Notes: generated by a model not told the origin, from the sequence alone. A stretch of 64,000 nucleotides of DNA from Armatimonadia bacterium (GCA_039683575.1 JBDKRC010000245.1:20909-84908); one strand, 5' to 3'. Shown: positions 15,706-64,000, counted from the stretch's first letter. Made by a program: numbers and translations.

Positions 15706-15708
15706 TCA

Positions 15709-17409: not shown

Positions 17410-17473
17410 GGGGCTTGCTCCCCGCGCCGTTGCTGGCGGCAACCAAATTGCTGATAAGGAGCCATCTGGCTCG

Positions 17474-20400
17474 ATGCTTACCAGGTTCGCGATTAACCGC
17501 CGTGTGACCATCTCCATGTTCATCCTTGGACTGGTCATCATGGGTCTAGTTGGCCTCTCCAAGATGCCGTGGGACCTTAACCCCAAGGTTGACTTCCCGA
17601 TGGTCTCGGTGACGGTTCCATATCCCGGTGCCAGTCCCCAGGAGATCGAGCAACGGATCGTACGCACTCTGGAAGACCAGGTCAGCGTCATCAACGGCGT
17701 CGATCAGGTGACTTCCCAATGCCAGGAAAACATCGGCGTAGTCAGCATCCGATTCCGCTATGGCACCGACGTGGATGTGGCCGCAGCCGATGTGCGCGAC
17801 GCCCTGGACCGTACCAAAGCGGAGTTCCCGGATGATGTTGAGGCCGCCTCCATCTACAAACTCGACATCGGCGCGATGCCCGTCATCACCATGGGCATTA
17901 CCGGCGACAGGCCGCCTCGAGACCTGCGCAAGATGGTGGAAGACACCATAAAGCCTGTACTCGGGCAAGTGCCAGGCGTTGCGGCTGTGACGATCTCCGG
18001 CGGTGAAGAGCGCGAGATCCAGATTCTGGCCAACAGGGACCGCCTCGACGCTGTCCAGATGTCCATCTCCGACCTCGCGCGAGACCTTGCCAACCAGAAC
18101 CTGGACATCCCCAGCGGCAACATCAAAGCGGGCATCCGCGACTATGCCGTGCGTGCTCTGGGACAGTTCTCCAGCATGGACGAGATCCGGCAACTCAGGA
18201 TAGACACCCCCGTCGGCCTGATCCCCCTGCGCGACATTGCTGAGGTTCTCGATACCGTTGCGGAGCCGTCGACCCTCGCCCGCACCGACGGCGTGCCCGC
18301 GGTGGGTGTGTCGGTACTGAAGCAGTCCGAAGCAAACACTGTCAGCGTCGTCGAAGGAGTGCGGCAGCGCCTCGAGATGCTGCTGGGCACCCAGGGAAAG
18401 CCCGGCAAACTCCCGGGCGACATTAAGGCTGTTGTGTCCTACGATGCTTCTGAACGCGTTAAGGAAGCCATCTATGACGTGCGCGATGCACTCATGTGGG
18501 GCGCGCTGCTGGCGGCGGTGGTGGTGTTCCTTTTCCTGCACAACTTCCGCGGCACAATCATAGTCGCTCTGGCCATCCCGACCTGTATCATGATGACGTT
18601 CCTGCCGATTGGCCTGGGGCTGGGCTTCACCCTCAACATGATGGTCATGCTCGGCCTGGCCCTCTCGGTGGGTATTCTCGTTGACGACTCGATCGTCGTC
18701 CTCGAGAACATTGACCGCCACCTGCAGATGGGTGAGCAGCCAGCCACGGCTGCCTACAACGGACGTACCGAGATTGGGGCGGCAGCCGTCGCGCTCACAA
18801 GCGTCGATGTGGTGGTCTACGTTCCTGTAGCCATGATGGGCGGCATCGTTGGTCGCTTCTTCTATTCGTTTGGCATCACCGTTTTCATCTGCACAATCTT
18901 CTCGCTCTTTGTGGCCTTTACGCTCACCCCAATGTTGGCCTCATGGTGGTACCAGCGCACTGATCGTCGTAAGGGTCACCGCCTTGGCCTCTGGGCCCGG
19001 TTCTTTGCGGCCTTCGATAGCTCTTACGCGGCCTTGGAGCGTGCCTATGTGCGCTTGCTGAAGCCTGCTATCCGGCACCCCTACATCACGGTCGCAGTCG
19101 GCTACGCCTTCCTGATTTTCGTCTTCATAGTCATTGGACCACGCCTCGGTCAGGAGTTCTTCCCGCAGTCCGATGAGGGCCGTCTTTCGGTTGAGATCGA
19201 GACAGCCGTCGGTACGCGCCTTGAGGAAACAGACCGCCTCACACGCATCATGGAGCAACGCCTGCTGAACCGTCAGAAGTACCCGGAGGTCACCGATCTC
19301 GACGTCACTGTCGGTCAGGGCTCCGCAAGTCACTTTGGCACCGGCAACCAGGGCGGCCGCTTCGCCAGCATCTCAGTCACTATGAGCGGCCGCAAGGAGC
19401 GCCTGCACGCCCAACAGAGGTCGGATGTGGCTCTTGCCGAGCAGCTTCGAAAGGACTTCTCCGATATACCGAACGCGACTATCAAGGTGCTCCCCGCTAC
19501 CGGCAATGGCCCGGGTAGTGCAGCCTTGGAGTACAACGTTCTCAGCGAAGACGAAGAAGCACTCGATAGGGCGGCAGCGCTGCTCGTAGCCGAACTCCGC
19601 AAGAACCCGAGACTGTTCTATGTAGACATTTCCTCCAAGCCGGGCCGGCCCGAGATACATGCCCGGATCGATCGCCTGCGGTGTGCCGACATGGGGTTGA
19701 CAGTGGCAAAAGTGTCCGCTGCGCTTCGTACTGCCTTTGCTGGCGACACCAGCAGCAAGTATCGCGAAGCCGGCGATGAATACGAGATGCGAGTGGAGTT
19801 CCGGGAGTTTGACCGCTCGCGCGTTCAGGACGTCGGCAACCTCTTTGTTGGCATGTCTGATCGAGACGGCGTCGACCAACCTGTTCGTCTGCGCGACGTA
19901 GCCGATATCACAATGTCTTCAGGCCCAAGCAGAATCGAGCGTTACAACCGCCAGCGCACGGTCACAGTCAGCGCGCAGCCCGTGCCTGGCTATGCCTCGG
20001 ACAAGGCGCAGAAAGACTTCGAGGCCGCCGCGGCCAAGATCGACATCCCCGGAGTGACTTTCGCCTGGACTGGTATGGCGCAGATGATGCGTGAAAGTTT
20101 CGCCTTCATGGGGCAGGCAATGCTGCTCTCGGTCATCTTGGTCTACCTGGTAACTGCCGCACTCTACAACTCAGTACTCGAGCCGTTGAACGTCATGCTC
20201 ACGCTGCCGATGGCCCTGGCTGGCGCTTTCCTGGGTCTCTATATCTGCGGCATGAACATGAGCGTGGTGGCGATCATCGGTTTCATTATGCTAATGGGGA
20301 TCGTGGGCAAAAACGCAATTCTGGTAGTGGACTACACAAATACGCTCCGTGCGCGTGGTATGACGCGTACTGAGGCGCTTGAGACTGCTGGCCCGCACAG

Positions 20401-20689
20401 AATGCAGCCCATCCTGATGACCACCATGGCCACCATCATGGGCATGATCCCAACTGCCATAGCGCTGAGCGAAGGCTCTGAATGGCGTTCACCGATGGCC
20501 ATCGCCGTGATCTTCGGCCTTGCCCTGTCAACTCTGCTATCGCTGATCGTGGTACCAGCCTCCTACTGCATCTGGGACTCCGTGGGGACCTTTTGCACGA
20601 CGTGTGTCGGCGGCCTGATTAGGCGCTTCGGTGGCGAAACCCAGCAGGAGCAGGAGAAGCCCCGGCAAGATGATGGGCGGAAGGAGTAG
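17474..20689 (+). CDS. RND efflux permease (AcrB/HAE1 family)
   Basis: 1071 aa; YPGASP, GILVDDSIVVLENI, GIVGKNAIL, RMQPILMT. Confidence 0.95.
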   Translation: MLTRFAINRRVTISMFILGLVIMGLVGLSKMPWDLNPKVDFPMVSVTVPYPGASPQEIEQRIVRTLEDQVSVINGVDQVTSQCQENIGVVSIRFRYGTDVDVAAADVRDALDRTKAEFPDDVEAASIYKLDIGAMPVITMGITGDRPPRDLRKMVEDTIKPVLGQVPGVAAVTISGGEEREIQILANRDRLDAVQMSISDLARDLANQNLDIPSGNIKAGIRDYAVRALGQFSSMDEIRQLRIDTPVGLIPLRDIAEVLDTVAEPSTLARTDGVPAVGVSVLKQSEANTVSVVEGVRQRLEMLLGTQGKPGKLPGDIKAVVSYDASERVKEAIYDVRDALMWGALLAAVVVFLFLHNFRGTIIVALAIPTCIMMTFLPIGLGLGFTLNMMVMLGLALSVGILVDDSIVVLENIDRHLQMGEQPATAAYNGRTEIGAAAVALTSVDVVVYVPVAMMGGIVGRFFYSFGITVFICTIFSLFVAFTLTPMLASWWYQRTDRRKGHRLGLWARFFAAFDSSYAALERAYVRLLKPAIRHPYITVAVGYAFLIFVFIVIGPRLGQEFFPQSDEGRLSVEIETAVGTRLEETDRLTRIMEQRLLNRQKYPEVTDLDVTVGQGSASHFGTGNQGGRFASISVTMSGRKERLHAQQRSDVALAEQLRKDFSDIPNATIKVLPATGNGPGSAALEYNVLSEDEEALDRAAALLVAELRKNPRLFYVDISSKPGRPEIHARIDRLRCADMGLTVAKVSAALRTAFAGDTSSKYREAGDEYEMRVEFREFDRSRVQDVGNLFVGMSDRDGVDQPVRLRDVADITMSSGPSRIERYNRQRTVTVSAQPVPGYASDKAQKDFEAAAAKIDIPGVTFAWTGMAQMMRESFAFMGQAMLLSVILVYLVTAALYNSVLEPLNVMLTLPMALAGAFLGLYICGMNMSVVAIIGFIMLMGIVGKNAILVVDYTNTLRARGMTRTEALETAGPHRMQPILMTTMATIMGMIPTAIALSEGSEWRSPMAIAVIFGLALSTLLSLIVVPASYCIWDSVGTFCTTCVGGLIRRFGGETQQEQEKPRQDDGRKE

Positions 20690-23755: not shown

Positions 23756-25438
23756 ATGAGTCGCATTTTCACAGTGACGGTGCTGCTCCTTACCCTCGGG
23801 CTGGCATGCCTGCCCTTGGGTGCTAAGGAGCTTCCCTCCCAGCAGGGCCTGCCCTCGGAACTCACGATTGCTCCGCGGCCAGCTCTGGCCGAGCAATTGG
23901 TGACACTGCAGGCTCTCGAGAAGTACATACAGGAGAACCGGCCGCATGGTGGCGGGTTCGTAACCGCGCTGCGGGGCATGTTTGCGCCCTCAGGAGTTCG
24001 AGCCGTTCCGGTGGCACCTGAGGTCCTGCTCAAGACGCCCGCACCCTTTGTTGGCAAACCCGTGAGTGTATCCGGGGTCTATCAGGCAACCGGCCCCGAG
24101 ACCGGCAAGTTCTCTCTCGAGACACAGCCTCTGCTCATCTCGCTGCCTGCTAACCTGCCCATGGCAGGCCTCCCCAAGAGTGGCCCGAATGGGCTCTCCG
24201 TCACCGTCGAAGGTATCGTGGAGAGCGGCGCCCTTGGCGTGCAGGTGCGGGCGACCAGCATCAAGCCTTCAGACTGGTTGACGCTGCTGCGGATCGGTCG
24301 CATCTACGAGCTTATGGGGCAGAAGGAGCAGGCGGAGAAGACGTACGAAAGCGCCTTCCCTGTCGCTCAGGCAGCCCGAAGCCCGTTCGCTGCTTTCGCC
24401 AAGACCAGTGCCGGACGTATTGCCTACGAGTTGCGGAACGTCAATCGGGCTCGCAACCACTACGCCGCAGCCTGGAACCCGCTTACCGGAACGACGCCGC
24501 AGGGCGAGCCCAAGTACTATACCTGGGTTCCGCTTGAAGACGGCTCAGGCTGGGAGAAGTTGCCCGTATCAAAGGCCATCGGGCCGCCGCTTGACCGCCT
24601 CAACAAGACCGATTTCTGGTACCGGTTCATGGACTTCTTTGTCGAGCTCGCCGGCGGGAGTCGCTGGCTCGGCATAGTCCTGCTCTCGATCATGAGCCGC
24701 GTCATCATCTGGCCGCTCACCAAGAAGCAGCTAGCTTCGGCGGAGGCAATGAAGCGCCTGCAGCCCCAGATCAAGGCTCTCCAGGATCGCTACGCAGACG
24801 ATAAGGCCAAGTTCCAGCAGGAATTCTGGCAGCTATGTCAGGCCAATGGCGTCAACCCACTCGGCGGCTGTCTGCCGATGATTGTGCAGATGCCTATCCT
24901 GATCCTGCTGTGGAAGGGCATCCGTAACTACATCGTTCAGTTTGACGGGTACGGGTTTCTCTGGGTCAAGAACCTGGCAGCGCCCGATATGGGGCTGCTG
25001 GTCGCCTACACCATCAGCATGATCGCGTTCCAGAAGATGACGGCGAAGCTGCAGGCCTCGCCGACGATGACGGCGCAGCAGGCCCAGCAGCAGCAGATGA
25101 TGACCTACATGATGCCCCTGATGTTCTTCTTCTTCTTCAGGGACTTCCCCGCGGCATTCCTGCTGTACTGGTTGGCGACAAACATCGTCTACTTCATGCA
25201 GCAGTACATGTACAGCCGCAGCCTGCCAAAGACCGACGCCGCTGACGGCGAGCCGCTGAGTTCTGACAAGAGCGGCGGGTTCGCCGGCACCATGGCGAAA
25301 ATGATGTCAATGAAGAATGAGGGCGAGGAGCCCCCGGCCGTTGAGAAGAAGAGCTTTCACGAGAAGCAAGCCGCTGACCAGGGCAAGAAGATTGCGAAGA
25401 CGCCTGACAAGAGTAGCGCCAAGCGCGGGCGCAAGTAG
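23756..25438 (+). CDS. yidC: Membrane protein insertase YidC with atypical N-terminal domain
   Basis: IIWPLT, MKRLQPQIKALQ, NPLGGCLP..VQMPI, FPAAFLLYW..N; synteny. Confidence 0.92.
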   Translation: MSRIFTVTVLLLTLGLACLPLGAKELPSQQGLPSELTIAPRPALAEQLVTLQALEKYIQENRPHGGGFVTALRGMFAPSGVRAVPVAPEVLLKTPAPFVGKPVSVSGVYQATGPETGKFSLETQPLLISLPANLPMAGLPKSGPNGLSVTVEGIVESGALGVQVRATSIKPSDWLTLLRIGRIYELMGQKEQAEKTYESAFPVAQAARSPFAAFAKTSAGRIAYELRNVNRARNHYAAAWNPLTGTTPQGEPKYYTWVPLEDGSGWEKLPVSKAIGPPLDRLNKTDFWYRFMDFFVELAGGSRWLGIVLLSIMSRVIIWPLTKKQLASAEAMKRLQPQIKALQDRYADDKAKFQQEFWQLCQANGVNPLGGCLPMIVQMPILILLWKGIRNYIVQFDGYGFLWVKNLAAPDMGLLVAYTISMIAFQKMTAKLQASPTMTAQQAQQQQMMTYMMPLMFFFFFRDFPAAFLLYWLATNIVYFMQQYMYSRSLPKTDAADGEPLSSDKSGGFAGTMAKMMSMKNEGEEPPAVEKKSFHEKQAADQGKKIAKTPDKSSAKRGRK

Positions 25439-25465
25439 CCCCGCTCCAGGTTCTGAAAAGGGAGG

Positions 25466-26224
25466 TTGGCAGTGGACACTGTAGAGACCACTGGTAAAAC
25501 CATAGAAGAGGCCAGGGCAGCAGCCCTACAGCAACTCCAGGCGACCGAGGATGAGGTGGAGTTCGAGGTAATCGAAGAGCCCCGCAAGCTGCTCGGCTTC
25601 CTCGGCACGCAGGGCGACTACCATCTCAGGGCTACCCGCAAGGGCACGATGGCCACTGGCGAAGCACCGGTTGAGACCGTACCGGAAGAGCAGCCGGTGG
25701 CAGAGGCCGGTGCGCCCCAGGTGCAGCCGATCAATGACCTCGCATCCACTGGTGCCGGTGCTGTTGAGCAGGTTGTGGCCCAGCGAGCGATCGAGTTTCT
25801 CGCTGAGACAACGAGGCTCATGGGCCTGCACACTGATGTTGTCGTGGTCAACTCCGAACCTGGTGAGATCGAACTTGAGATCCGCGGTGAAGGCCTCGGT
25901 CTGTTGATCGGGCGGCACGGCGCCACACTCGACGCTCTTCAGATGCTCGCGGCAGTAGTGGGCAACACCGGCCTCAGTCAGGGAGCGCGCGTTGTGGTTG
26001 ATGCCGAGCAGTATCGGGAACGCCGACGGGAGATGCTGCGCAAGATGGCCTTGCAGCAAGCCGAGAAGGCCAAAGAGTCACAGCAGGAAGTCGTCATCCC
26101 GGATCTCAAAGCCTTCGAGCGGCGTATCGTTCATCTTACGCTTAAGGACGATCCAGACGTGGAGACCTACAGCGAGGGCGAAGGCGACGATCGCTGCATA
26201 GTCATCTCCCCTCGAAATGTATAA
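25466..26224 (+). CDS. jag: RNA-binding protein Jag/EloR (Jag_N, KH, R3H)
   Basis: TGKTIEEA, LLIGRHGATLDALQ, ERRIVH, TYSEGEG. Confidence 0.93.
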   Translation: MAVDTVETTGKTIEEARAAALQQLQATEDEVEFEVIEEPRKLLGFLGTQGDYHLRATRKGTMATGEAPVETVPEEQPVAEAGAPQVQPINDLASTGAGAVEQVVAQRAIEFLAETTRLMGLHTDVVVVNSEPGEIELEIRGEGLGLLIGRHGATLDALQMLAAVVGNTGLSQGARVVVDAEQYRERRREMLRKMALQQAEKAKESQQEVVIPDLKAFERRIVHLTLKDDPDVETYSEGEGDDRCIVISPRNV

Positions 26225-36357: not shown

Positions 36358-36435
36358 CGGGGCGTGGCGCAGTTTGGTTAGCGCGTTGGTCTGGGGGACC
36401 AAAGGTCGCTGGTTCGAGTCCAGTCGCCCCGACCA
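36358..36435 (+). tRNA. tRNA-Pro (GGG)
   Basis: Acceptor CGGGGCG/CGCCCCG, anticodon arm TTGGT-CTGGGGG-ACCAA, GGTTCGAGTCC T-arm, 3' ACCA. Confidence 0.97.
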
Positions 36436-46422: not shown

Positions 46423-48348
46423 ATGGCCGCTGACTCCATCGGCGACGCTGTCCGTACCCGCCGCGCCAAAGGCCTGCAGTTTGCCTTCGCACTGACGGCT
46501 GCGGTCGTTTTGCTTCGCTCCCTGCCAGTCACCTCCGGGCTCCCTGTCTTCTCGCTCATCGAGAACTTCGCCTACGACTTCTACTTCCAGCATCGCCCCG
46601 TTCGGGACATGAGCCGCTTCGTCATCATCGCGATAGACGAGGAAAGCCTCCTACCCGAGCACCTCGGCCGCTTCCCGTGGCCTCGCTCCGCCTATGCCGC
46701 CCTCCTCCCCCGTCTGGCACAGGCCGACGCAGTGGGAGTTGACCTGCTGTTCTCCGAGCCTTCACCCGAGGACGCTGCCCTTGCCAAAGCCATGCAGCGC
46801 CACGGACGCGTGGTTCTAGCCGCCCACAAACGCCGCGTAGAGAAGGGCGCCATCGCCTGGCAGGGATATGGTCAACACGATGTCGGCAGGATCCCGGTGG
46901 CGCACTCGGAAGAGGAATTCGTGCCTCCGGTCCCACTGCTCGCCAAAGCTGCCGCAGGCATCGGCTACGTGGACATCGTCCCCGACCGCGACGGCATCTA
47001 CCGGCGCGTCAAACCCCTGGAAGTCGGCAACGGAGGCTACCTCTACCCTCACTTCTCCTGTGAGCTTGCCCGCCTTGTGACCAAGACCGCTCCGGCGCTG
47101 CTAGCCTCCTCCGCGGCTCAAGGCAATCTCACCATCGGCCCCAGGAAGGTTCCACTCTCCCAGGGCCGCATGTTGATCAACTACGCAGGGCCTGTCGAGA
47201 CCGTCACCTATCTTCCCTTCTGGAAGGTCCTCGCAGGCCAGTACGGCCCCGAAACCTTCCGCAACAAGATCGTCCTCATCGGCCCCACTGCCGCCGGCCT
47301 CTATGACATCCGCCCCGCACCCTTCGCCCGCAACAATCGTGTATTCTTCGGCGTGGAGACCAATGCCAACATCGCCGCCACTCTCCTCTCCGGCGAAGTC
47401 TTGCGCGACTTCCGCGGCTCGACGGTGTGGGCGCTCTACGCCCTGCTGGTCGGGATGCTAACCGCCTGTGCCATCTGGAACTCCCGCGACGCGCTCGCCG
47501 CCGTCCTCGGCGTGATGACTGTCGCCTTCCTGGCCCTCCCCGCCTTCTTCGTAGGCGTCGCCCTGCTTCATCAGGTGGTCCCCTACGGCGGCATCGTCCT
47601 CGCCGCGGTCCTGCCCATGGCTGTTGCCCTCTACGAGCGCCTCGGTGCCGAGAAGCGCGAAGTCACCCGCCAGTTCGCTACCTATGTCTCTCCTGACGTC
47701 CTGCACGAACTCGCCGAGAATCCGGAGTTGGTACGCGTCGGCCAACGTCGCGAAGTCACCATCCTCTTCTCTGACGTTCGTGGCTCAACGACTATCGTCG
47801 AAAACATGGAGCCTGACGTCTGGATTGCCCAGCTGAACGAGTACCTCTCTGAGATGAGCGACGCCATCTTTGCCTATGACGGGTATCTGGACAAGTTCAT
47901 GGGCGATGGCATCATGGTCCTCTGGAATGCCTTCGGCAATCAGCCTGACCACGCCCAGCTTGCCACCAAGAGCGCCCTGCAGATGCTGGAGCGTCTCCGC
48001 CACCTGAACGAGCAGTGGGAGCATGTGGAGGGCCGGGTACCCCTCCGCATCGGCATTGGCCTGCACACTGGCGAAGTTGTCGTTGGCAATGTCGGGTCCA
48101 ATCGCCGTGCCCAGTACACTGCAATTGGCGACTCCGTAAACACTGCCTCGCGCCTCGAGGCCCTTACGAAGGACTTCAGCGCCGAGGTGCTGCTGAGTGA
48201 GACGACGGCGGCGGCTGTGGAGCAGTCCCTTCAGCTTGTCGAACTCGGTGAAGCCCGCCTTAAGGGCCGCGAGAAGCCGCTCAAAGTCTACAAGCCGCAT
48301 GGCTATCAGGGAGAGACGAAGGGCTGCATCACACAGGAGCACAAATAG
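46423..48348 (+). CDS. CHASE2-domain class III adenylate/guanylate cyclase
   Basis: IAIDEES, GRFPWPR, DRDGIYRR, three TM helices; FSDVRG, DKFMGDG, YTAIGDSVNTASRLE. Confidence 0.93.
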   Translation: MAADSIGDAVRTRRAKGLQFAFALTAAVVLLRSLPVTSGLPVFSLIENFAYDFYFQHRPVRDMSRFVIIAIDEESLLPEHLGRFPWPRSAYAALLPRLAQADAVGVDLLFSEPSPEDAALAKAMQRHGRVVLAAHKRRVEKGAIAWQGYGQHDVGRIPVAHSEEEFVPPVPLLAKAAAGIGYVDIVPDRDGIYRRVKPLEVGNGGYLYPHFSCELARLVTKTAPALLASSAAQGNLTIGPRKVPLSQGRMLINYAGPVETVTYLPFWKVLAGQYGPETFRNKIVLIGPTAAGLYDIRPAPFARNNRVFFGVETNANIAATLLSGEVLRDFRGSTVWALYALLVGMLTACAIWNSRDALAAVLGVMTVAFLALPAFFVGVALLHQVVPYGGIVLAAVLPMAVALYERLGAEKREVTRQFATYVSPDVLHELAENPELVRVGQRREVTILFSDVRGSTTIVENMEPDVWIAQLNEYLSEMSDAIFAYDGYLDKFMGDGIMVLWNAFGNQPDHAQLATKSALQMLERLRHLNEQWEHVEGRVPLRIGIGLHTGEVVVGNVGSNRRAQYTAIGDSVNTASRLEALTKDFSAEVLLSETTAAAVEQSLQLVELGEARLKGREKPLKVYKPHGYQGETKGCITQEHK

Positions 48349-48368
48349 CCGCCTCGGGAGTCACCACC

Positions 48369-49541
48369 ATGTTCGGCATCTTTGGCAAGAAGAAGAAGGC
48401 CCCGCAGACCTCGCAAGCACTCCTCTCCGATGCACTCTCCGACCTGCTTCACGACCAGCAGGTGAAGGACAAGCGCAAGCGCCGTCGCCGGTTGGGCCTT
48501 CCCGGCTGGCTGGACAGACGCCTCCTCATTGGCCTCGCCATCATCTTTGTGCTGGTCATTGCCGACGCCGTCCGCCGCGAAAACCAGGAGTTCTCCGCCG
48601 TAGTTACGAACTTCGGTGGCACCGTCACCGCTCAGCCCCCCGACGGCCACGCTGCTCCCGTCAAGATCAAGCAGAAGCTGGTCGACCGCACCAACGTCGT
48701 CACCGCTGCCGGCTCCTGGGTCGACCTCGCTTTCCCCGACGGCAGCAAGGTCGCCCTCGACGGCAACACCGACTTCCAGGTCAAGCTCCTGGAGTATCAC
48801 CGTGGCGGGCAATGGCGCTCGCGCTCATTCTTCCTCAAGTCCGGGCGCATCTTTGCTCGCATCGGCCAGAACTTCGGCAAGGAATCTGAACTCCGTGTCT
48901 ACACTCCCGGCTGTGTCGCAGCCGCCCGCGGCACTCGCTTCAGCGTTCAGGCTGAAGCCAGCGGCGGCGCCCGCACCGTCTGTGGCGATGGCGTTGTCGA
49001 GGTCAAGGGTTTCAACGGAGACCGCATGTTCGTCCGCGGCTCCGGCGAATGTAGCGCCACACCCGGTACCAGCCCCACTCGGCCCGTAGTTGCCCCCTCT
49101 TCAGACCTCGCCGCCTTCCGGCACGCCTCCATGAACGAGATCATCCGCACGGATCCCTGGTACAAGCAAGCCGAACTGACCATCACCCAGACCCTCGACG
49201 CACCGCTGACCATCCTCGGCATCGGCAAGTGCAGTTGGGCCGTCGGAGCCGCCGACTTCGCCCGCCGCACCAACGCCCAGGAGGCTCTGCGCAAGATCAG
49301 GGTCAACCTCGAGGGCGACGCCAACTACCCGCTATGGGTCAACCCCGCCACGCTGGAGGAGCTACAGATCAAGGAAGAGGGCGGCGTGGAGAAAATCCTG
49401 AAGAACTTCGACGGGGCAGGGATCGAAAGCTACCGTTCCGATGGCCGCCGCTTCGTCATCACAGTCCGAGCCCGCGACCGCCATCGTACCCGCTATGAGC
49501 TGACTCAGGCTGTCATCCGCAAGTCGAAGGAACAGGACTAG
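48369..49541 (+). CDS. FecR-domain membrane protein
   Basis: One TM helix; [35 protein letters not shown]. Confidence 0.8.
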
Positions 49542-57308: not shown

Positions 57309-58115
57309 TCAGTCCCCCGGCAGCATCCTAACCATGAACTGATACGCCTTCTTCAGCGCCTCCGCCCGTCCCGCCTCATCCTCTCCCGGCGCCCGCTCCA
57401 GCGTATACGCCCCCCGGTACCCCTTCTCCCACAGCATCGGCAGAATCACGTCATAGTTCGTGTCGCCCTCGCCGATCAGCGGGAAATCCGCCACGCCCTT
57501 GCCGCCCCGGCTGTCCTTCAGATGGGTATGCCCGATGTACGGCACCATTTGCTCCAGCCGGTCCTCCGGCAGCTTCCCCTCATAAAACAGGAAATTCGCC
57601 GGGTCATAAGCCAGCCGCACCCGCCCGTGGTCAATGACCTCCATCGCGTGCAAACAAGCATCCGTATCCCCAGTGAAGCCGCCATGCGTCTCCAGACAAA
57701 TCGTGATTCCAAGCTCCCCCGCCCGATCCCCCGCCACCCGCACCCGCTCCACGAACAGCTTCTCCTCCGCCGCGATCTGCTCCGGCGTCTTGTCCGCATA
57801 CCCGAAGCTCCCCATGTCCATCACCGGCGCCCCCAGCTTCGCCACATTCTCCAACCGCCCCAGCACGCCCTCAAGCCCATCGTCGGCCAGGATGTTCGAC
57901 CCGCCGGCAAATGCCGCGATCAGCTTCAGGTCATGCGCCGCAAGCTGTGCGTTGAACCAGTCCCGCTGCTCCTCAGTCAGCGTAAGCAGGTCGAGATCGA
58001 GGTACCCGCGGTAGAAACCGATGGCGACATTCTTGAAGCCCGCAGCGGCGGTATTGCGCAAGAAAGCCTGAAAGTCCTGATCGCAGAAGTTGTACGCGGC
58101 AAGTATCGGTTGCAT
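57309..58115 (-). CDS. Sugar phosphate isomerase/epimerase
   Basis: CLETHGG, YDPAN, HTHLKD, YTLE; ATG after GAGG. Confidence 0.9.
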   Translation of the reverse strand: MQPILAAYNFCDQDFQAFLRNTAAAGFKNVAIGFYRGYLDLDLLTLTEEQRDWFNAQLAAHDLKLIAAFAGGSNILADDGLEGVLGRLENVAKLGAPVMDMGSFGYADKTPEQIAAEEKLFVERVRVAGDRAGELGITICLETHGGFTGDTDACLHAMEVIDHGRVRLAYDPANFLFYEGKLPEDRLEQMVPYIGHTHLKDSRGGKGVADFPLIGEGDTNYDVILPMLWEKGYRGAYTLERAPGEDEAGRAEALKKAYQFMVRMLPGD

Positions 58116-58325
58116 GAAGACCTCACATGATATCTGGCTCGCCGAAACAAACACCGAGTTCCCTCTTCCCTTAGCGAGACCTGCAACAGAAATGGGGACT
58201 GCCCCTGATTTCGCCCCACATGCCTCATCACCGCCAAACCCCCAAGCCAAATTGGGGTCTGCACCCGTCTCTGGCTCCCATACCCCGGAGAAGGGTTTCC
58301 CCCTCTCCCCGCCGAACAATCAACC

Positions 58326-58772
58326 ATGGTCGAGCTAACTGACGCGCAGGAGCCTCTGGAACTAGCGTGGACCGTCTGGCCCGCCCGCCGTCAGCCTCTG
58401 CTCTCAGTGGTCGTCGCCGCCTTCTGCCTCGCCGTCTCCTGGTGGGCCATGGCCTATATGGGCAGCCCTTATTTTGCCTTTCTAACGCTTGTGATTTTCG
58501 CTATGGCCCTGTCGGAATTCTACTTTCCGATGCGTTGCCGCCTCAGTGCCGACGGCGTCGAGCGCCGCCACCTCGGAATCACCCACATGCAGTCGTGGTC
58601 TACCTTTCGCCTGGCCGAGGTCCTGCCGGATCGCCTCGTCTTGTACCGCTACGGCAATGTGCCCCGCTGGTACGCACGCCAGCGCGCTGTGCCTCTGCGC
58701 TTCGAAGGCAATCAGACCCAGATACTCGAGTACATCCGCCGCCATGTGCCGCTCTCATCTGACAAGGATTAG
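58326..58772 (+). CDS. Hypothetical membrane protein (two TM plus PH-like soluble domain)
   Basis: Two hydrophobic helices then ..LSADGVE....WSTF pattern. Confidence 0.7.
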   Translation: MVELTDAQEPLELAWTVWPARRQPLLSVVVAAFCLAVSWWAMAYMGSPYFAFLTLVIFAMALSEFYFPMRCRLSADGVERRHLGITHMQSWSTFRLAEVLPDRLVLYRYGNVPRWYARQRAVPLRFEGNQTQILEYIRRHVPLSSDKD

Positions 58773-58774
58773 CC

Positions 58775-59083
58775 GTGGTTGATGACCTCCCGCCGCCCGA
58801 TGACGTCTATGATGAGAAACGCCAGCGCGAGGTGCTGGTCAAAGTAGCGCGCGAGCTATCAGCCCGGCGCCTGACCGCACCCGCCATCTTCATACTCGAG
58901 TCCGCCATGCCGCTGACCTACCTGGCGTCTCAAGCCCTGGTCATGCTGCAACCCTTTGTCCAGTTCATCATCGGCACAGAAGACTATCAGGTCTTCGCCG
59001 CAGCCCTGGAGAACCGCGAGAACATAGAGTGGCTAATCCAGCAACTCGAGCAAGCCGAGGAAGCTCCGCCGGCCAACCCGTAG
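58775..59083 (+). CDS. Conserved hypothetical protein
   Basis: PAIFILES..PL.YLASQ...LENRENIE pattern; 2 nt after the previous stop. Confidence 0.7.
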   Translation: MVDDLPPPDDVYDEKRQREVLVKVARELSARRLTAPAIFILESAMPLTYLASQALVMLQPFVQFIIGTEDYQVFAAALENRENIEWLIQQLEQAEEAPPANP

Positions 59084-59088
59084 CCTCT

Positions 59089-59121
59089 GCCGTTAGCCGT
59101 TAGCCGTTAGCCGTTAGCCGT
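59089..59121. repeat. Heptamer tandem repeat (GCCGTTA)x4 plus partial copy
   Basis: Directly visible. Confidence 0.9.
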
Positions 59122-59147
59122 GTGGAGCGCGGGCATCCTTGCCCGCA
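59122..59147 (+). repeat. REP-like hairpin
   Basis: GTGGAGC-GCGGGCA-TCCT-TGCCCGC; 17-nt core identical to 53153-53169. Confidence 0.6.
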
Positions 59148-59199
59148 CGCCGTTGCCGTCCAATCTGAAACCTCAAACCTGAAACCTGGGACCTGCCCC

Positions 59200-60981
59200 A
59201 TGCCCAACGTAATCCTCGCCACCGACTGCGGCTCAACCACCACCAAGGCCATCCTCATCGAGCGCCGTGGCGATGAGTACCGCCTCGTCACGCGCGGCGA
59301 GGCCCCCACAACCGTTGAGGCCCCCTTCGAAGACGTCACGGTTGGTGTCCTCAACGCCATTGCGGAGGTCGAGGAACTCTCCGGTCGCAAGCTCCTCGAG
59401 AACGGCCGCATCATCCGCCCCGCCAAAGACAACGTCGGCACCGACCTCTACCTCTCGACCAGTTCCGCCGGCGGCGGCCTCCAGATCGTGGTCGTAGGCC
59501 TTGTGAAGCGCATCACCGCCGAAAGCGCCCAGCGTGCCGCCCTCGGCGCCGGGGCCATCGTCATGGACGCCCTCGCCCTGGACGACGGCCGCCTGCCCCA
59601 CCAGCGCATCGAGCGCCTCCGCCAGCTTCGCCCGGACATGGTCCTCATCTCCGGCGGCGTGGACGGTGGCGAGCAGCGCCGCGTCGTCGAGATGGCCGAG
59701 CTCGTCGCCGCCGCCAACCCCGAAGCCCGTCTCGGCGCCAAGTACAAGCTTCCGGTCATCTACGCCGGCAACATTGACAACCGCGAGGCCATCGAGCAGG
59801 TCCTGGGGCCTGTGACGGCCCTCTCGCAGGTTGACAACCTCCGCCCGCTCCCCGAGCGCGAGAACCTCAATCCCACTCGCGGCGAGATACAGGAACTCTT
59901 CCTCCACCACGTCATGGCCCAGGCCCCCGGCTACTCGAAGCTCGTACCGTGGACCGACGCCGACATCATGCCCACTCCCGCCGCCGTCGGCCGCATCATG
60001 CAAACCATCGCCGCCGCCGAGAACATCAACGTCGTCGGGGTAGATATTGGCGGGGCCACGACCGACGTCTTCTCGGTCTTCGGCGGCCAGTTCAACCGCA
60101 CCGTCAGCGCCAACCTGGGCATGAGCTACTCGATCTCCAACGTCTTCGCCGAGGCCGGGGCCGAGAACCTCATGCGTTGGCTCACCAGGGAAGCCGACGC
60201 CGAGGCCCTGAGCCAGAGCGTCCGCAACAAGATGATTCGCCCCACTACCATCCCTCAGGGCCTCGAGAGCCTCAAAATCGAGCAAGCCGTCGCCCGCGAG
60301 GCCCTGCGCCTCGCCTTCGAGCAACACCGCCAGCTTGCTACGGGCCTGAAGGGCGTGCAGCGCGAGCGTGACATCTCGGAGGCCTTCACCGGCGGCGTCA
60401 CCGGCGAGACCCTGATCGAGATGATGAATCTCGACCTCCTGGTCGGATCCGGTGGCGTGCTCTCCCACACCCCCCGCCGCTCCCAGGCTGCCATGATGCT
60501 GATTGACGCCTTCCTGCCCGAGGGGGTCACCCGGCTGGCCGTGGACAGCATTTTCATGATGCCGCAGCTTGGCGTTCTGGCCACAGTCAACGCCGAGGCT
60601 GCCCGCCAGGTCTTCGACAAGGACTGCCTCATCCACCTCGGCACCTGCATCGCCCCGGTCGGCTCCGGCCGTGTCGGCGCAGATTGCCTCAAGCTGACGC
60701 TTCAGGCCGGCGAGCACAGCGGCTCGCTCTCCATCCCCTGTGGTGAGATGGGTCTGCTGCCCCTGCCCGACGGGGCCGCGGGGACTTTGACCATCGAAGC
60801 GGCGCGAGGGTTTGACCTTGGGCAGGGCCGGGGGCGAAGTGCTACAATTCCGGTGCAGGGCGGGGTAGTGGGGATCATCGGCGACGCCCGGGGCCGGCCT
60901 CTGATGTGGGCGAAGGAACCCGCTCAGAGGCGGGAGCAAGTCAAGCGTTGGCAGGATGCCTTGAACGCATATCCACAATAA
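59200..60981 (+). CDS. GlmL (glutamate mutase L)-like ASKHA ATPase
   Basis: TDCGSTTTKA, SSAGGGL, VDIGGATTDVFS, RTVSANLGM, GSGGVLSH. Confidence 0.85.
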   Translation: MPNVILATDCGSTTTKAILIERRGDEYRLVTRGEAPTTVEAPFEDVTVGVLNAIAEVEELSGRKLLENGRIIRPAKDNVGTDLYLSTSSAGGGLQIVVVGLVKRITAESAQRAALGAGAIVMDALALDDGRLPHQRIERLRQLRPDMVLISGGVDGGEQRRVVEMAELVAAANPEARLGAKYKLPVIYAGNIDNREAIEQVLGPVTALSQVDNLRPLPERENLNPTRGEIQELFLHHVMAQAPGYSKLVPWTDADIMPTPAAVGRIMQTIAAAENINVVGVDIGGATTDVFSVFGGQFNRTVSANLGMSYSISNVFAEAGAENLMRWLTREADAEALSQSVRNKMIRPTTIPQGLESLKIEQAVAREALRLAFEQHRQLATGLKGVQRERDISEAFTGGVTGETLIEMMNLDLLVGSGGVLSHTPRRSQAAMMLIDAFLPEGVTRLAVDSIFMMPQLGVLATVNAEAARQVFDKDCLIHLGTCIAPVGSGRVGADCLKLTLQAGEHSGSLSIPCGEMGLLPLPDGAAGTLTIEAARGFDLGQGRGRSATIPVQGGVVGIIGDARGRPLMWAKEPAQRREQVKRWQDALNAYPQ

Positions 60982-61096
60982 CAGTGAACATGATGTTATG
61001 GGCCCAAATCGCGCCATTGGGTAAGTCCATTGCACCTTTGAGGGCCTGTTTAGAGCGGCAAAAGGCTGGAAATTGTCTGGCAAAGGGGTTGATCGC

Positions 61097-61429
61097 GTGG
61101 AGACTTTTGACTTGGACGTTGCTGAAGCCAAAGCCAGGTTGCAGGTCAAGGTAGCCCGGACAGTCATGCGCCACAAGCTTATCATGATCGGGAACATCCT
61201 GCTGGTAAGCTACCTCGTGGCAGTGGTCGTGCTGCTTATCTGGTACATCGCCTACTTCGTCTTCGGCCAGGGCATGGCGACCTGGGCCGCGGGCCTGATG
61301 TACCTTTCCGTGCCGGCGTTCGTGTCCCTGAACGCCACCGCCTACGTCTGGACCAAGATCGCCGCTACGGTCCTGTTCCTTTGCCCTGGCGTCGCCTTCA
61401 AGATCTGCGGCGAGACAATGAAGCCCTAG
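61097..61429 (+). CDS. Small membrane protein
   Basis: Hydrophobic helices; GTG after AAGGGG. Confidence 0.6.
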   Translation: METFDLDVAEAKARLQVKVARTVMRHKLIMIGNILLVSYLVAVVVLLIWYIAYFVFGQGMATWAAGLMYLSVPAFVSLNATAYVWTKIAATVLFLCPGVAFKICGETMKP

Positions 61430-61443
61430 TTCGCACAATCATA

Positions 61444-61489
61444 GTAGGGCAGGCGGCTCGCCTGCCCGCGGGTGAGCCGCCCGCTCTAC
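61444..61489. repeat. Inverted REP doublet (REPIN-like)
   Basis: GTAGGGCAGGCGGCTCGCC ... GGTGAGCCGCCCGCTCTAC; arms 16/19 identical as inverted repeats. Confidence 0.75.
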
Positions 61490-61529
61490 TGTAATTACGG
61501 TCTCCTATCTTACCGCGGAAGTTGATTAC

Positions 61530-62654
61530 ATGGCACACGCCTACACTCCGGGCCTGCGGGTCACCGGGAACACCGTCTTACGCAAGCAGCGCCGCCTGCC
61601 GTTGCCCGGCAAGGTCCACGTCAAGGTGGGCGACCTCGTCTCTGCCACCGACATCATCGCCTCCACCGAACTACCCGGCAGCGTGACCACCGTCAACGTG
61701 GCGCGCGAGATGAACTGCCAGCCCAACGAAGTCCCCGGCTACATGGTCAAAGAGATCGGCGAGCGGGTGGAAAACGGCGAGATCATGGCGGAGAGCAAAT
61801 CCTTCTGGGGGCTCTTTCACTCCTTCGTCAAAGCCCCCGTGCCCGGCGTACTGGAGTCGGTGAGCAACATCACCGGGCAGGTGCTGCTACGCGGCAAACC
61901 GACGCCGGTACAGCTCGAGGCCTACCTGGACGGGCGGGTAGTCGAGGTGCTTGGAGACGAGGCTGTGACAGTTGAGGCCCGTTGCGCTTTGCTGCAAGGA
62001 ATCTTCGGCCTCGGCGGTGAAACGTATGGTGAGATCAAGCTGTTGGTCTCCAAGCCCGATGAGCCGCTGGCGGTGGACCGGGTAGACGAGTCCTGCCGGG
62101 GCAAGGTCCTGGTAGCCGGTGCCTTCGCCTCACTGGCCGCCCTGCAGCAGGCGATACGCATGGGCGCGGCGGCTGTCGTGGTCGGCGGGGTGCGGGATCA
62201 TGACGTGGACGAACTGCTCGGCTATCACCTCGGCGTGGCCGTCACTGGCAGCGAGAAGCTTGGCCTGACGCTCGTGGTGACCGAGGGCTTCGGGAGCATC
62301 CCGATGGCCCATCGCGCCTTCGAGCTCCTGCGGTCGCGGGAGGGCAGCCGCGCTTCAGTCAGTGGCGCCACCCAGATCAGAGCCGGGGTCATCCGCCCGG
62401 AGGTCATCATCTCCGTCCCTGAGGAGACCGCGGCGCAGGTGCCGTCTGAAGAACAAGCCGGGCTCCTGAACATCGGCAGCCCGATCCGTCTTATCCGCGA
62501 ACCCTACTTCGGCCTGTTGGCCACCGTGGCTGCCTTGCCCGAAGAGCCCCAGAAGATCGAAACCGAGGCCAGCGTGCGAGTGCTGGCAGCCAAACTGGAG
62601 GATGGTCAGGTCGTGACCGTACCCCGCGCCAACGTGGAGTTGATCGAGCAGTGA
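61530..62654 (+). CDS. Conserved hypothetical protein (barrel-sandwich repeats, swivel-like domain, KOW-like end)
   Basis: VKVGDLV..., KAPVPGVLE; LQGIFG.GGE; TEGFGSIPM; IRLIREPYFG...VPRANVE. Confidence 0.8.
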   Translation: MAHAYTPGLRVTGNTVLRKQRRLPLPGKVHVKVGDLVSATDIIASTELPGSVTTVNVAREMNCQPNEVPGYMVKEIGERVENGEIMAESKSFWGLFHSFVKAPVPGVLESVSNITGQVLLRGKPTPVQLEAYLDGRVVEVLGDEAVTVEARCALLQGIFGLGGETYGEIKLLVSKPDEPLAVDRVDESCRGKVLVAGAFASLAALQQAIRMGAAAVVVGGVRDHDVDELLGYHLGVAVTGSEKLGLTLVVTEGFGSIPMAHRAFELLRSREGSRASVSGATQIRAGVIRPEVIISVPEETAAQVPSEEQAGLLNIGSPIRLIREPYFGLLATVAALPEEPQKIETEASVRVLAAKLEDGQVVTVPRANVELIEQ

Positions 62655-63865
62655 GAGCCTCCCGGGCGGCCCTCGTCGGCGTGCTGCTGCTATTGGCAGC
62701 GGCACTTGCCTGCGCGCAGAGCCTCCCTGGCCCTCTCGGCGTGACTGCCAAGGACGATCCCGAGGATGCCGTCGGCACCCAGCTACTGCTCTCATGGCAA
62801 CCGCCAAAGCCTCCGGCTCCGGCAGGCCTGCAACTCGCCGGGTACCGCGTGCACCTGCAAGCGGGCACAGCCGAGCCCACTATCGTCGAGTTGCTGCCCG
62901 ATCCCACGGCAAAGGGCACCATGGCCCCGGACCTCAAGCCCTGGGTCAAGTACCGCCTCGGCGTTACCGCCTTCTACATCCCCGCTGGGGCCAAGGTGGA
63001 CGTGGATGACCTCGCCCCGACCGGCCTCGCCACCCCCGGCTCTCGCGAGAGCCAGATCGCGTGGAGTTCCCCCGTTTCTCCGAAAGGCCGTTGGTTCAAG
63101 CCCGATCAGCGCAACGTCCTCGTCACTGCACTGCTCATCTCGCTTATCGTCATCTTGACCATCTACGTCGCCAAACGCCGCGACATGTACATCCGTCCCA
63201 TCGCCGGTTTGCAGGCGGTTGACGACGCCATCGGCCGCGCCACCGAGATGGGCCGCCCCATCCTCTACATCGCGGGCCTGACCGGCATCGGCGACATCGC
63301 GACGATTGCCGCCATGCTCATTCTCGGCCACCTCGCCAAACGCACCGCTGCCTACGAGACCCCGATCCTGGTCCCCTGCCAGGACCCGCTGGTCATGGCC
63401 GTGCAGCGTGAGATCGTCCACGAGGCCTACCTCGAAGCAGGCAAGCCGGAAGTCTACAACCCTGAGAACATCTTCTTCGTGACCGACAGCCAGTTCGGTT
63501 ACGTGGCGGCCGTGGACGGCATCATGCTCCGCCAGCGCCCCGCGGCGAACTTCTTCATGGGTTACTTCTTCGCGGAGTCCCTGATCCTGGCCGAAACCGG
63601 CAGCGCCACCGGCGCCATTCAGATTGCTGGCACCGATGCCGACACGCAACTACCTTTCTTCGTAACCAGTTGCGACTACACCCTCATGGGTGAGGAGCTT
63701 TACGCAGCAGGCGCCTACCTGTCACGCGACCCGATCCTCCTGGCCCAGCTCAAGGGCCAGGACCTCGGCAAAGTGTTGATCTTCATTGTCCTGCTCGCTG
63801 GAACCATCGCGGCAACGGTAAGCTGCGCCGCCGGCGAATGGGTGATGAAGTTCCTGGCGAGTTGA
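62651..63865 (+). CDS. FN3-domain / DUF6754 membrane protein
   Basis: Signal peptide, FN3 (LSW, Y, LKP..Y), TM, IRPIAGL, RATEMGRP, QLPFF..CDY.L.GEELYAA; GTGA overlap. Confidence 0.8.
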   Translation: MRASRAALVGVLLLLAAALACAQSLPGPLGVTAKDDPEDAVGTQLLLSWQPPKPPAPAGLQLAGYRVHLQAGTAEPTIVELLPDPTAKGTMAPDLKPWVKYRLGVTAFYIPAGAKVDVDDLAPTGLATPGSRESQIAWSSPVSPKGRWFKPDQRNVLVTALLISLIVILTIYVAKRRDMYIRPIAGLQAVDDAIGRATEMGRPILYIAGLTGIGDIATIAAMLILGHLAKRTAAYETPILVPCQDPLVMAVQREIVHEAYLEAGKPEVYNPENIFFVTDSQFGYVAAVDGIMLRQRPAANFFMGYFFAESLILAETGSATGAIQIAGTDADTQLPFFVTSCDYTLMGEELYAAGAYLSRDPILLAQLKGQDLGKVLIFIVLLAGTIAATVSCAAGEWVMKFLAS

Positions 63866-63876
63866 GGGCCACCCCA

Positions 63877-63895
63877 GTAGCGCGGGCGGCTCGCC
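63877..63895 (+). repeat. Truncated REP copy
   Basis: GTAGCGCGGGCGGCTCGCC matches the 61444 arms, then stops abruptly. Confidence 0.65.
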
Positions 63896-64000
63896 AGTAG
63901 TGTCTCATAAAAACTTGGGGGAGAAAGAGGGGTGGGAGAGCTCCGGCAAGAAGTGATTGTTACCAGACAACCTTCTGTGGAGGCTCTCCCGATGGCTCAT
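63895..64000 (+). mobile_element. Probable left end of an insertion sequence (truncated by window edge)
   Basis: Abrupt switch to CAGTAGTGTCTCATAAAA; GGAGG RBS and ATG at 63992; long hairpin GGGAGAGCTCC...GGAGGCTCTCCC masks the RBS. Confidence 0.5.

Follow-up and report, generated by a model that had tools for sequence, protein, structure and literature searches.

A stretch of 64,000 nt from an Armatimonadia bacterium (GCA_039683575.1, JBDKRC010000245.1:20909-84908), hereafter the window, was analysed for a gene cluster located on the + strand between positions 58326 and 63865. Five co-oriented genes, termed A, B, C, E and F, were all recovered as open reading frames (ORFs) where a first reading of the DNA alone (the sequence-only reading) had placed them (Table 1). 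That reading had singled out the product of C as a GlmL-like actin-fold ATPase working with membrane partners, despite the name 'glutamate mutase L' that its relatives carry. The ORF of C extends upstream to a GTG at 59122, but the N-termini of its homologues agree with a start at the ATG at 59200. A and B are separated by 2 nt, while the stop codon of E overlaps the start of F by 4 nt. No Pfam match was obtained for A, B or E.

For comparison, one genome per species was scanned, yielding 576 loci with relatives of C, of which the best-scoring 80, all from metagenome-assembled genomes (MAGs), were kept. These belong to Armatimonadota, Planctomycetota (mostly anammox), Zixibacteria, Ignavibacteria, Eisenbacteria, Poribacteria, Marinimicrobia, Latescibacterota, Bdellovibrionales, Nitrospinae, Nitrospirota, Edwardsbacteria, WOR-3, Dormibacterota, one 'FCB group' record and nine unclassified records. 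Fifty of the 80 loci have full flanks, defined as at least 5 kb upstream and at least 9 kb downstream of C, many of the others being truncated. Neighbour families were built by all-against-all clustering of the ORFs in the 80 loci and then counted with family hidden Markov models (HMMs). Family representatives of C were collected by an exhaustive HMMER search, and the best 150 were used for the analyses of motifs, fusions and the relation to GlmL.

Table 1. Features of the cluster in the window, the three genes that follow F in related loci, and the loci in which family HMMs found each gene (TM, transmembrane)
Feature	Position	Strand	Description	Loci (of 80)	Full-flank loci (of 50)
A	58326..58772	+	148 aa; N-terminal 2-TM hairpin (hydropathy, residues 23-69), C-terminal soluble domain of ~80 aa	32	24
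B	58775..59083	+	102-aa helical protein, conserved hydrophobic core	51	36
C	59200..60981	+	593-aa predicted ASKHA (actin-fold) ATPase, Pfam MutL/GlmL family	79	50 (by selection)
D	61073..61429	+	118-aa ORF, 2-3 TM segments, in the 549-nt C-E gap; doubtful, probably lineage-specific	0
E	61530..62654	+	374-aa multidomain soluble protein	58	38
F	62651..63865	+	404-aa membrane protein (predicted order: signal peptide, FN3, TM, DUF6754 alpha/beta, TM)	44 (56 copies)	33
FN3 ectodomain of F (predicted)	62735..62983	+	residues ~29-111
DUF6754 core of F	63083..63829	+	residues 145-393
c5			~218 aa, ~six TM segments	43	33
c3			~279 aa, TM segment at each end of a ~210-aa domain	42	33
c4			~243 aa, ~six TM segments	40	32

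C is predicted to be an ASKHA ATPase with intact nucleotide-binding motifs. It matched the Pfam family MutL (PF13941) with 417.3 bits (cut-off 27) over the entire model (positions 1-450 of 450), and the actin-fold motifs quoted in the sequence-only reading were present as DCGSTTTK (residues 9-16), DIGGATTD (282-289) and GSGG (416-419), in agreement with the phosphate-1 (DxGxxxxK), phosphate-2 (DxGGxTxD) and adenosine (GxGG) motifs of ASKHA proteins, respectively. All three were invariant among 14 aligned homologues and strongly conserved in the 150 representatives, nearly all of which retained D9, G11, K16, D282, G284, G418 and D449. Four cysteines invariant in close relatives were considered as a metal or Fe-S site, but they are not conserved across the 150 representatives and the idea was discarded. 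The family is large, comprising 3045 representative clusters at E ≤ 1e-3 and 745 at E ≤ 1e-30, and in a word-indexed search with C all 8000 scored candidates were significant. The closest relatives are proteins from Armatimonadia MAGs, and relatives in other phyla, spanning at least 14 named phylum-level groups, are 59-70% identical to C.

In public records, relatives of C are called 'glutamate mutase L' or 'methylaspartate mutase', a label that the sequence-only reading had considered misplaced. The comparison with curated models bears this out. C scored 223.5 bits against the NCBIfam equivalog model for GlmL (NF040745, cut-off 475), 215.7 bits against that for Or-4, a GlmL-related protein of ornithine degradation (NF040744, cut-off 600), and 170.2 bits against the GlmL subfamily model TIGR01319 (cut-off 204.05). 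Among 47 representatives sampled from the best 150 (every second one of those with 440-640 aa, plus five short ones), the highest scores were 235.5, 221 and 180.6 bits, respectively, and none reached any of the three cut-offs. As a positive control, we used the glmS-glmL-glmE cluster annotated in E. coli O157:H7 Sakai. Its GlmL was 29% identical to C over C residues 5-432, leaving residues 433-593 without a counterpart, and it scored 125.5 bits on the C-family HMM, with 20-33% identity to the 147 of 150 representatives that it matched. The extension of C past the GlmL-aligned region (~95-160 aa) is conserved in the family, and its motif D562-x-R-G-R-P was kept in 94 of the 95 representatives having this region. 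GlmL and Or-4 share with C the family PF13941, the same ASKHA motifs and an alignable stretch over residues 5-432, whereas GlmL is 462 aa long and sits by glmS/glmE, and C, with its 593 aa, falls outside both the length of ~460 aa and the close overall similarity expected of a GlmL and lies beside, or fused with, E and membrane genes. C is not GlmL proper and belongs to a distinct, highly conserved clade of MutL-family ASKHA proteins. For GlmL itself, a figure legend (Fig 4, PMC4682846) gives the role of reactivating chaperone, citing a paper on a diol dehydratase reactivase. Many relatives of C also bear a precomputed Hydantoinase_A label from Pfam. C matched this family (PF01968) with 22.6 bits against a cut-off of 22.9 over ~43 residues around the second phosphate motif, and with this local, sub-threshold match and no hydantoinase B partner it is not a member of the hydantoinase A/oxoprolinase group.

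The sequence-only reading had further stated that the window holds neither glmS/glmE nor any other B12-binding gene. Indeed, when 54 window ORFs were scanned with Pfam, six at the locus and 48 elsewhere across the window, the B12-binding, Met_asp_mut_E and MM_CoA_mutase families were all absent. Consistent co-occurrence with mutase subunits in other genomes had been set beforehand as an observation that would refute the sequence-only reading. When representatives of the 69 non-core neighbour clusters present in at least three of the 80 loci were scanned with Pfam, none belonged to a B12-binding, glutamate mutase, methylmalonyl-CoA-mutase-type or aminomutase family. Across these 54 ORFs and 69 recurrent clusters, C was never found beside glmS or glmE.

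Conservation of the neighbours, the other test fixed in advance, was observed for E, F, B and A (Table 1), with A lying directly upstream of B-C in every locus where it was found. Neither of the two tests refuted the sequence-only reading. The recurrent gene order is A-B-C-E-F, followed by the three membrane protein genes c5, c3 and c4, and E, F, c5, c3 and c4 occurred all together in 32 of the 50 full-flank loci. Gaps of at most 50 nt were found for F-c5 (39/43), c5-c3 (39/40), c3-c4 (34/39), A-B (30/31) and B-C (35/46). The membrane system first proposed thus holds as regards its conserved neighbours, but it was incomplete, having missed three membrane proteins whose genes would lie past the window end. 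Since the window stops 135 nt past F, c5-c3-c4 are expected beyond it, and they lie downstream of F in the Armatimonadota loci L001, L002, L005 and L008. In eight loci (Zixibacteria, Ignavibacteria, two unclassified records and one of the FCB group), the F-c5-c3-c4 set is repeated in tandem, so that two or three copies adjoin one C-E; for each of the four proteins the paralogues share 30-57% identity. Because these diverged sets adjoin a single C-E, one soluble module appears to serve several old, diverged membrane modules.

The products of c3, c4 and c5 belong to no consistent Pfam family, even at E ≤ 1, and a c3 profile found no match among PDB sequences. PDB sequence and profile searches with C, E, F and c3 returned only FN3 matches, for F. 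To judge from these comparisons, with the PDB for C, E, F and c3 and with Pfam for c4 and c5, six of the eight families (all but C and F) are without a Pfam entry or a recognisable solved relative. Three further neighbour families (c24, c25 and c85) were tried as divergent core members and rejected at probabilities below 17. A defence system was likewise rejected, as the eight core proteins gave no match to PADLOC anti-phage models at E ≤ 0.01.

The connection between C and E extends to the proteins themselves. C-E fusions of ~900-1050 aa account for 41 of the 150 representatives, and in one more (P0155) B is fused to the N-terminus of C. An ESM Atlas structural search with E retrieved a cluster whose members, 995-aa proteins bearing MutL, align with the whole of E at a TM-score of 0.85 by query. 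On a quick, unrooted FastTree phylogeny of 133 C domains, from which 18 rows less than 75% filled had been dropped, the fused or unfused state changed 11 times, at least nine of these changes being forced by well-supported branches; the count is approximate because of the quick, unrooted tree. The mean over shuffles was 35 changes, and none of 500 shuffles was as low as 11. C is physically tied to E and B through these fusions, and E is an obligate partner of C. Some odd fusions were also seen among the representatives, namely Peptidase_M1+C (P0131), GntR+C (P0165), HTH_3+C+E (P0222) and Zn_ribbon+C+E (P0212), some of which may be gene-calling artefacts.

The structural model of E (pLDDT 86.5) consists of an N-terminal barrel-sandwich hybrid, a beta-rich part, an alpha/beta domain and a C-terminal KOW/SH3-like domain. 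At lenient thresholds, 30 homologues of E matched the Pfam families Biotin_lipoyl (25/30), RnfC_N (21/30), NQRA_N (10/30) and KOW (6/30). The fold search gave domain-level matches only (KOW, RraA/PA-like and MccF-like), the alpha/beta domain showing a weak fold likeness to RraA, PA-domain and MccF-like proteins, and no global structural relative of E was found among PDB folds. The family has many invariant polar residues. It has no invariant histidine, lysine or cysteine, so E is neither a biotin/lipoyl carrier nor a phospho-histidine protein. In biotinyl/lipoyl carrier proteins an invariant lysine at the hairpin tip of the barrel-sandwich hybrid is modified, whereas the candidate position in E, residue 90, is K, R or S in the 30 homologues.

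F matched DUF6754 (PF20539) with 380 bits over residues 145-393 (cut-off 27), while its fn3 match by sequence, at 19 bits, was under the Pfam cut-off of 25. In the AlphaFold model (pLDDT 82.9), the corresponding part matched solved FN3 domains (Foldseek E ~1e-5, probability 1.00, TM-score by target 0.7-0.8), and by this model F carries an FN3 beta-sandwich domain. The modelled order is a signal helix, the FN3 strands (residues 29-111) and two TM helices (151-176 and 361-390) with an alpha/beta domain (185-358) between them. Because the two TM helices clamp the alpha/beta domain, we predict a cytoplasmic location for the DUF6754 core and an outer one for the FN3 domain. The description of F as a DUF6754 membrane protein is therefore sound as to its TM helices and family, but the core does not appear to be a polytopic membrane domain, and a transporter-like domain of this kind was rejected. 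Residues 287-320, which are hydrophobic and modelled with low confidence, could possibly form a membrane-dipping loop. Beyond FN3, the PDB fold search with F found nothing, and the Atlas search returned only clusters of the same family.

Conservation differed along F. The DUF6754 part shows strong conservation and many invariant residues, and FN3 is missing in 5 of 28 aligned homologues. Among 120 long DUF6754 relatives (708-2020 aa), DUF6754 was C-terminal in all, and the N-terminal region was a PQQ-type beta-propeller in 21, fn3 in five, another family in one and unannotated in 93. The extracytoplasmic FN3 domain of the sequence-only reading is accordingly present in F by the model, but it is optional and variable and does not define the system. 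In three long DUF6754 proteins the N-terminal ectodomain contains c3-like domains, which places the soluble domain of c3 on the outer side, together with the ectodomain of F. F and c3 are not recognisable as homologues of each other (hhalign probability 0.5).

Several known systems resemble parts of this arrangement. NqrA and RnfC, which are peripheral subunits on the cytoplasmic side, dock on membrane subunits, and their N-terminal barrel-sandwich hybrid domain is the one suggested for E by the lenient matches; by analogy, we propose that E docks on its membrane partner in the same manner. E shares just this one domain with them and is without Fe-S, flavin and NADH-binding parts. The Foldseek comparison of E with NqrA was not significant (E 0.014, probability 0.15), and neither RnfC nor NqrA gave a match of note in the global fold search. 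The weak match of the N-terminal domain stands alone in this respect, with c3, c4 and c5 matching no Rnf or Nqr family. MacB, LolCDE and FtsEX are mechanotransmitting ABC systems, and ECF transporters share an energising module. The cluster may be likened to these in combining a cytoplasmic ATPase with membrane proteins bearing large periplasmic domains, and one ATPase with several modules. The ABC systems, however, use a P-loop ABC protein in place of the actin-fold C, and the membrane proteins found here match no ABC permease family; ABC_tran was absent from A, B, C, E, F, c5, c3 and c4. PilM-PilN and FtsA are examples of ASKHA proteins bound to bitopic membrane proteins, which recalls an actin-fold cytoplasmic protein encoded beside small membrane-anchored partners (A, B and F), although PilM and FtsA belong to another ASKHA subfamily and no pilus or divisome genes are conserved among the neighbours.

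Taken together, the five genes in the window probably begin a conserved operon of some eight genes (A-B-C-E-F-c5-c3-c4), which encodes a cytoplasmic C-E-B module and a four-protein membrane module, and in which C is not a B12-mutase accessory protein. The cytoplasmic module would consist of the ATPase C, its partner E, often fused to it, and the small protein B, and the inner-membrane module of F, the polytopic c5 and c4, and c3, whose periplasmic alpha/beta domain would be anchored by a TM segment at each end. We infer that the two modules dock physically and that ATP drives their coupling. Binding and hydrolysis of ATP in C would be relayed via E to the cytoplasmic DUF6754 domain of F and on, through the TM helices on either side of it, to the parts in the membrane and the periplasm, resulting in either substrate transport or mechanical work on the envelope. 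A single ATPase module could serve two to three paralogous membrane modules, and the variable outer domains would set specificity. A bolder version of this reading, put forward tentatively and with rather more doubt than belief, is that the cluster represents a new and ancient primary-active membrane machine with an actin-fold instead of a P-loop, P-type or rotary motor, in which a shared B-C-E plugs via DUF6754 into swappable four-protein modules and powers transport or mechanical work in the periplasm, with exchangeable outer domains (FN3, beta-propeller, c3-like) providing the specificity. The machine would then be found in many phyla, most of them uncultured.

A number of observations weigh against this interpretation. 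The 80 loci are the top-scoring of 576 and no random sample of the family, and the mutase scan left out 428 clusters seen in one or two loci as well as whole genomes. E, F, c5, c3 and c4 were absent within 10 kb of C in 12 of the 50 full-flank loci, and near C in all 12 Poribacteria loci (eight with full flanks, the others truncated). As the membrane genes do not adjoin C in Poribacteria, C can be encoded apart from them. Relatives with DNA-binding domains (the GntR+C and HTH_3+C+E proteins) point to sensing rather than transport. Finally, the mechanism rests on analogy, since whole E, DUF6754, c3, c4 and c5 have no solved or known relative.

Genes found more loosely around the cluster give hints of a link to sensing, to the envelope or to the metabolism of peptides or amino acids. 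In 12 of the 80 loci, peptide ABC genes of the Opp/Dpp type (SBP_bac_5, BPD_transp_1) were interleaved with the cluster as separate, optional neighbours. In the Latescibacterota loci L025, L026, L027, L037 and L078 (~11.9-16.2 kb), SBP_bac_5 and two permease genes are inserted between C and E, with Opp-type ATPase genes after c4, and this insertion provides the tightest hint as to the class of substrate. Glycine-cleavage or lipoate-ligase genes adjoin the cluster in 16 of the 80 loci, with GcvT, GcvH, GcvP or lipoate-protein ligase directly upstream of A-B-C in L019, L047, L049, L063, L066, L073, L057 and L060, among others; this context was found in Eisenbacteria, WOR-3, Dormibacterota, Latescibacterota and unclassified MAGs. 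In Ignavibacteria-type loci (L030, L050, L068, L072 and L079; ~14-19 kb), E is followed by a Tol-Pal-type set of genes (MotA_ExbB, ExbD, TonB_C, TolB-like, OmpA and TPR/YfiO), and C is separated from E by the unannotated c24 (268 aa, anchored at both ends by TM segments). The Opp, glycine-cleavage and Tol-Pal links are lineage-restricted and may therefore reflect inherited gene order. In Poribacteria, AP_endonuc_2 and GFO_IDH_MocA oxidoreductase genes flank C in 11-12 loci (among them L034, L040, L042, L046, L051, L052, L054, L055, L067, L074 and L080), which could be a second, sugar- or inositol-type context of C, or a coincidence.

The peptide and amino-acid context bears on an alternative in which C-E is a membrane-tethered ATP-dependent enzyme, either a kinase or a hydantoinase/oxoprolinase-like amide-cleaving or carboxylating enzyme, acting on a small molecule imported by F-c5-c3-c4. 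Uptake would then be coupled to trapping or conversion of the substrate, probably a peptide- or amino-acid-derived compound. Small-molecule kinases are common among ASKHA members, and the weak Hydantoinase_A matches of C and many relatives, the Opp and glycine-cleavage/lipoate-ligase neighbours, the single Peptidase_M1+C fusion and the many invariant polar residues of E are all consistent with such an enzyme. Nevertheless, a hydantoinase B-type or other catalytic partner is lacking, E has no invariant histidine, lysine or cysteine, and the Opp and glycine-cleavage links come mostly from Latescibacterota and a few other groups, where they may be inherited synteny. Moreover, FN3 and beta-propeller ectodomains suit macromolecular ligands better than small solutes. 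We regard this alternative as unlikely, albeit plausible.

The variable ectodomains on a conserved membrane and cytoplasmic core also resemble the design of a receptor. The outer domains of F could sense the periplasm, with DUF6754 recruiting or releasing C-E as a nucleotide-controlled switch. ASKHA-fold repressors sequestered by membrane transporters are known from ROK/Mlc, and the GntR+C and HTH_3+C+E fusions suggest that relatives of C bearing a helix-turn-helix (HTH) domain act as ligand-sensing regulators. These fusions, though, were just two of the 12 odd-length proteins scanned, with other long representatives outside that scan, and two polytopic proteins and one bitopic periplasmic protein per module exceed the needs of a sensor. 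A cross-phylum identity of 60-70% is unusual in signalling, and the core has no output domain. A transmembrane sensor or regulator is thus an improbable description of the system.

Less probable again is a membrane-anchored actin-like scaffold or filament organising envelope machinery and anchored by A, B and F, much as is the case for FtsA or PilM. Such a scaffold would fit the actin fold of C, its very high conservation, which is typical of polymer-forming proteins, and the Tol-Pal-type genes after E in Ignavibacteria and related loci, but C is nearest to MutL and hydantoinase A and not to FtsA, MreB or ParM, and the Tol-Pal adjacency is confined to one lineage. That C is an ordinary GlmL-type reactivase or chaperone of a B12 mutase encoded elsewhere, its membrane neighbours being incidental, would agree with its place in PF13941, the labels of its relatives, the Poribacteria loci and the bounds of the mutase scan, but is very hard to reconcile with scores under all GlmL, Or-4 and TIGR01319 cut-offs, the low identity to genuine GlmL and the ~160 extra C-terminal residues, or with the mutase-free recurrent clusters, the cross-phylum gene order with E and the membrane genes, and the recurring C-E fusions.

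A few features of the window lie outside the conserved system. Since none of the 80 loci holds a homologue of D, this ORF, whose likelier start is an ATG near 61167, is regarded as lineage-specific and is probably not part of the system. In other Armatimonadota loci C and E abut, without the gap (60982-61529) found here. The gap contains two GC-rich hairpins at 61447-61497, 3' of D, and an 11-nt core, GGCGGCTCGCC, which reappears just past F at 63885 (two matches, a number reached in 2 of 100 shuffles); the hairpins and this core may constitute a small repeated extragenic element. Upstream of A, a divergent gene on the - strand (57309-58319) encodes an AP_endonuc_2 protein (xylose-isomerase-like TIM barrel).

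The genomic setting is that of an ordinary bacterial chromosome segment (DnaE, YidC/Jag, Der, an RND efflux operon), and 16 of the 48 further window ORFs were without any Pfam family match. The RND efflux operon (OEP, HlyD-type adaptor and AcrB-type pump) and the YidC-Jag pair, at 14320-20689 and 23756-26224, form a housekeeping context, and a CHASE2-domain adenylate/guanylate cyclase followed by a FecR-domain protein was found at 46423-49541. GC skew is negative throughout 30000-60000, reaching -0.30 at 50-54 kb, and most genes there are on the + strand. The sole Rfam match in the window was one tRNA gene (36358-36432, 63.5 bits). Apart from it, no riboswitch or other RNA element reached the gathering score in the window or in three loci, and lowering the threshold to E ≤ 1 for 57800-64000 added one chance match to a miRNA model and no other RNA element. 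A scan for promoters and terminators found nothing exceeding the shuffled expectation.

A full-text search of open-access papers and bioRxiv found no paper on DUF6754, PF13941, TIGR01319 or ASKHA together with glutamate mutase, and within the reach of that search the cluster, widespread and highly conserved as it is, has no literature. That C keeps 60-70% identity in at least 14 phylum-level groups points to an important role in housekeeping. Thousands of public genes are labelled 'glutamate mutase L' or 'methylaspartate mutase', and for the C clade, where this label is unsupported, it can steer metabolic reconstructions of uncultured phyla towards a B12-dependent glutamate fermentation that is perhaps absent. 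If the preferred reading of the cluster as a shared soluble module joined to membrane modules is correct, it predicts a C-E-B complex, docking on DUF6754 and a motor shared by paralogous modules. We know of no other membrane machine driven by an actin-fold ATPase, and if C indeed energises the membrane modules, this would be the first.

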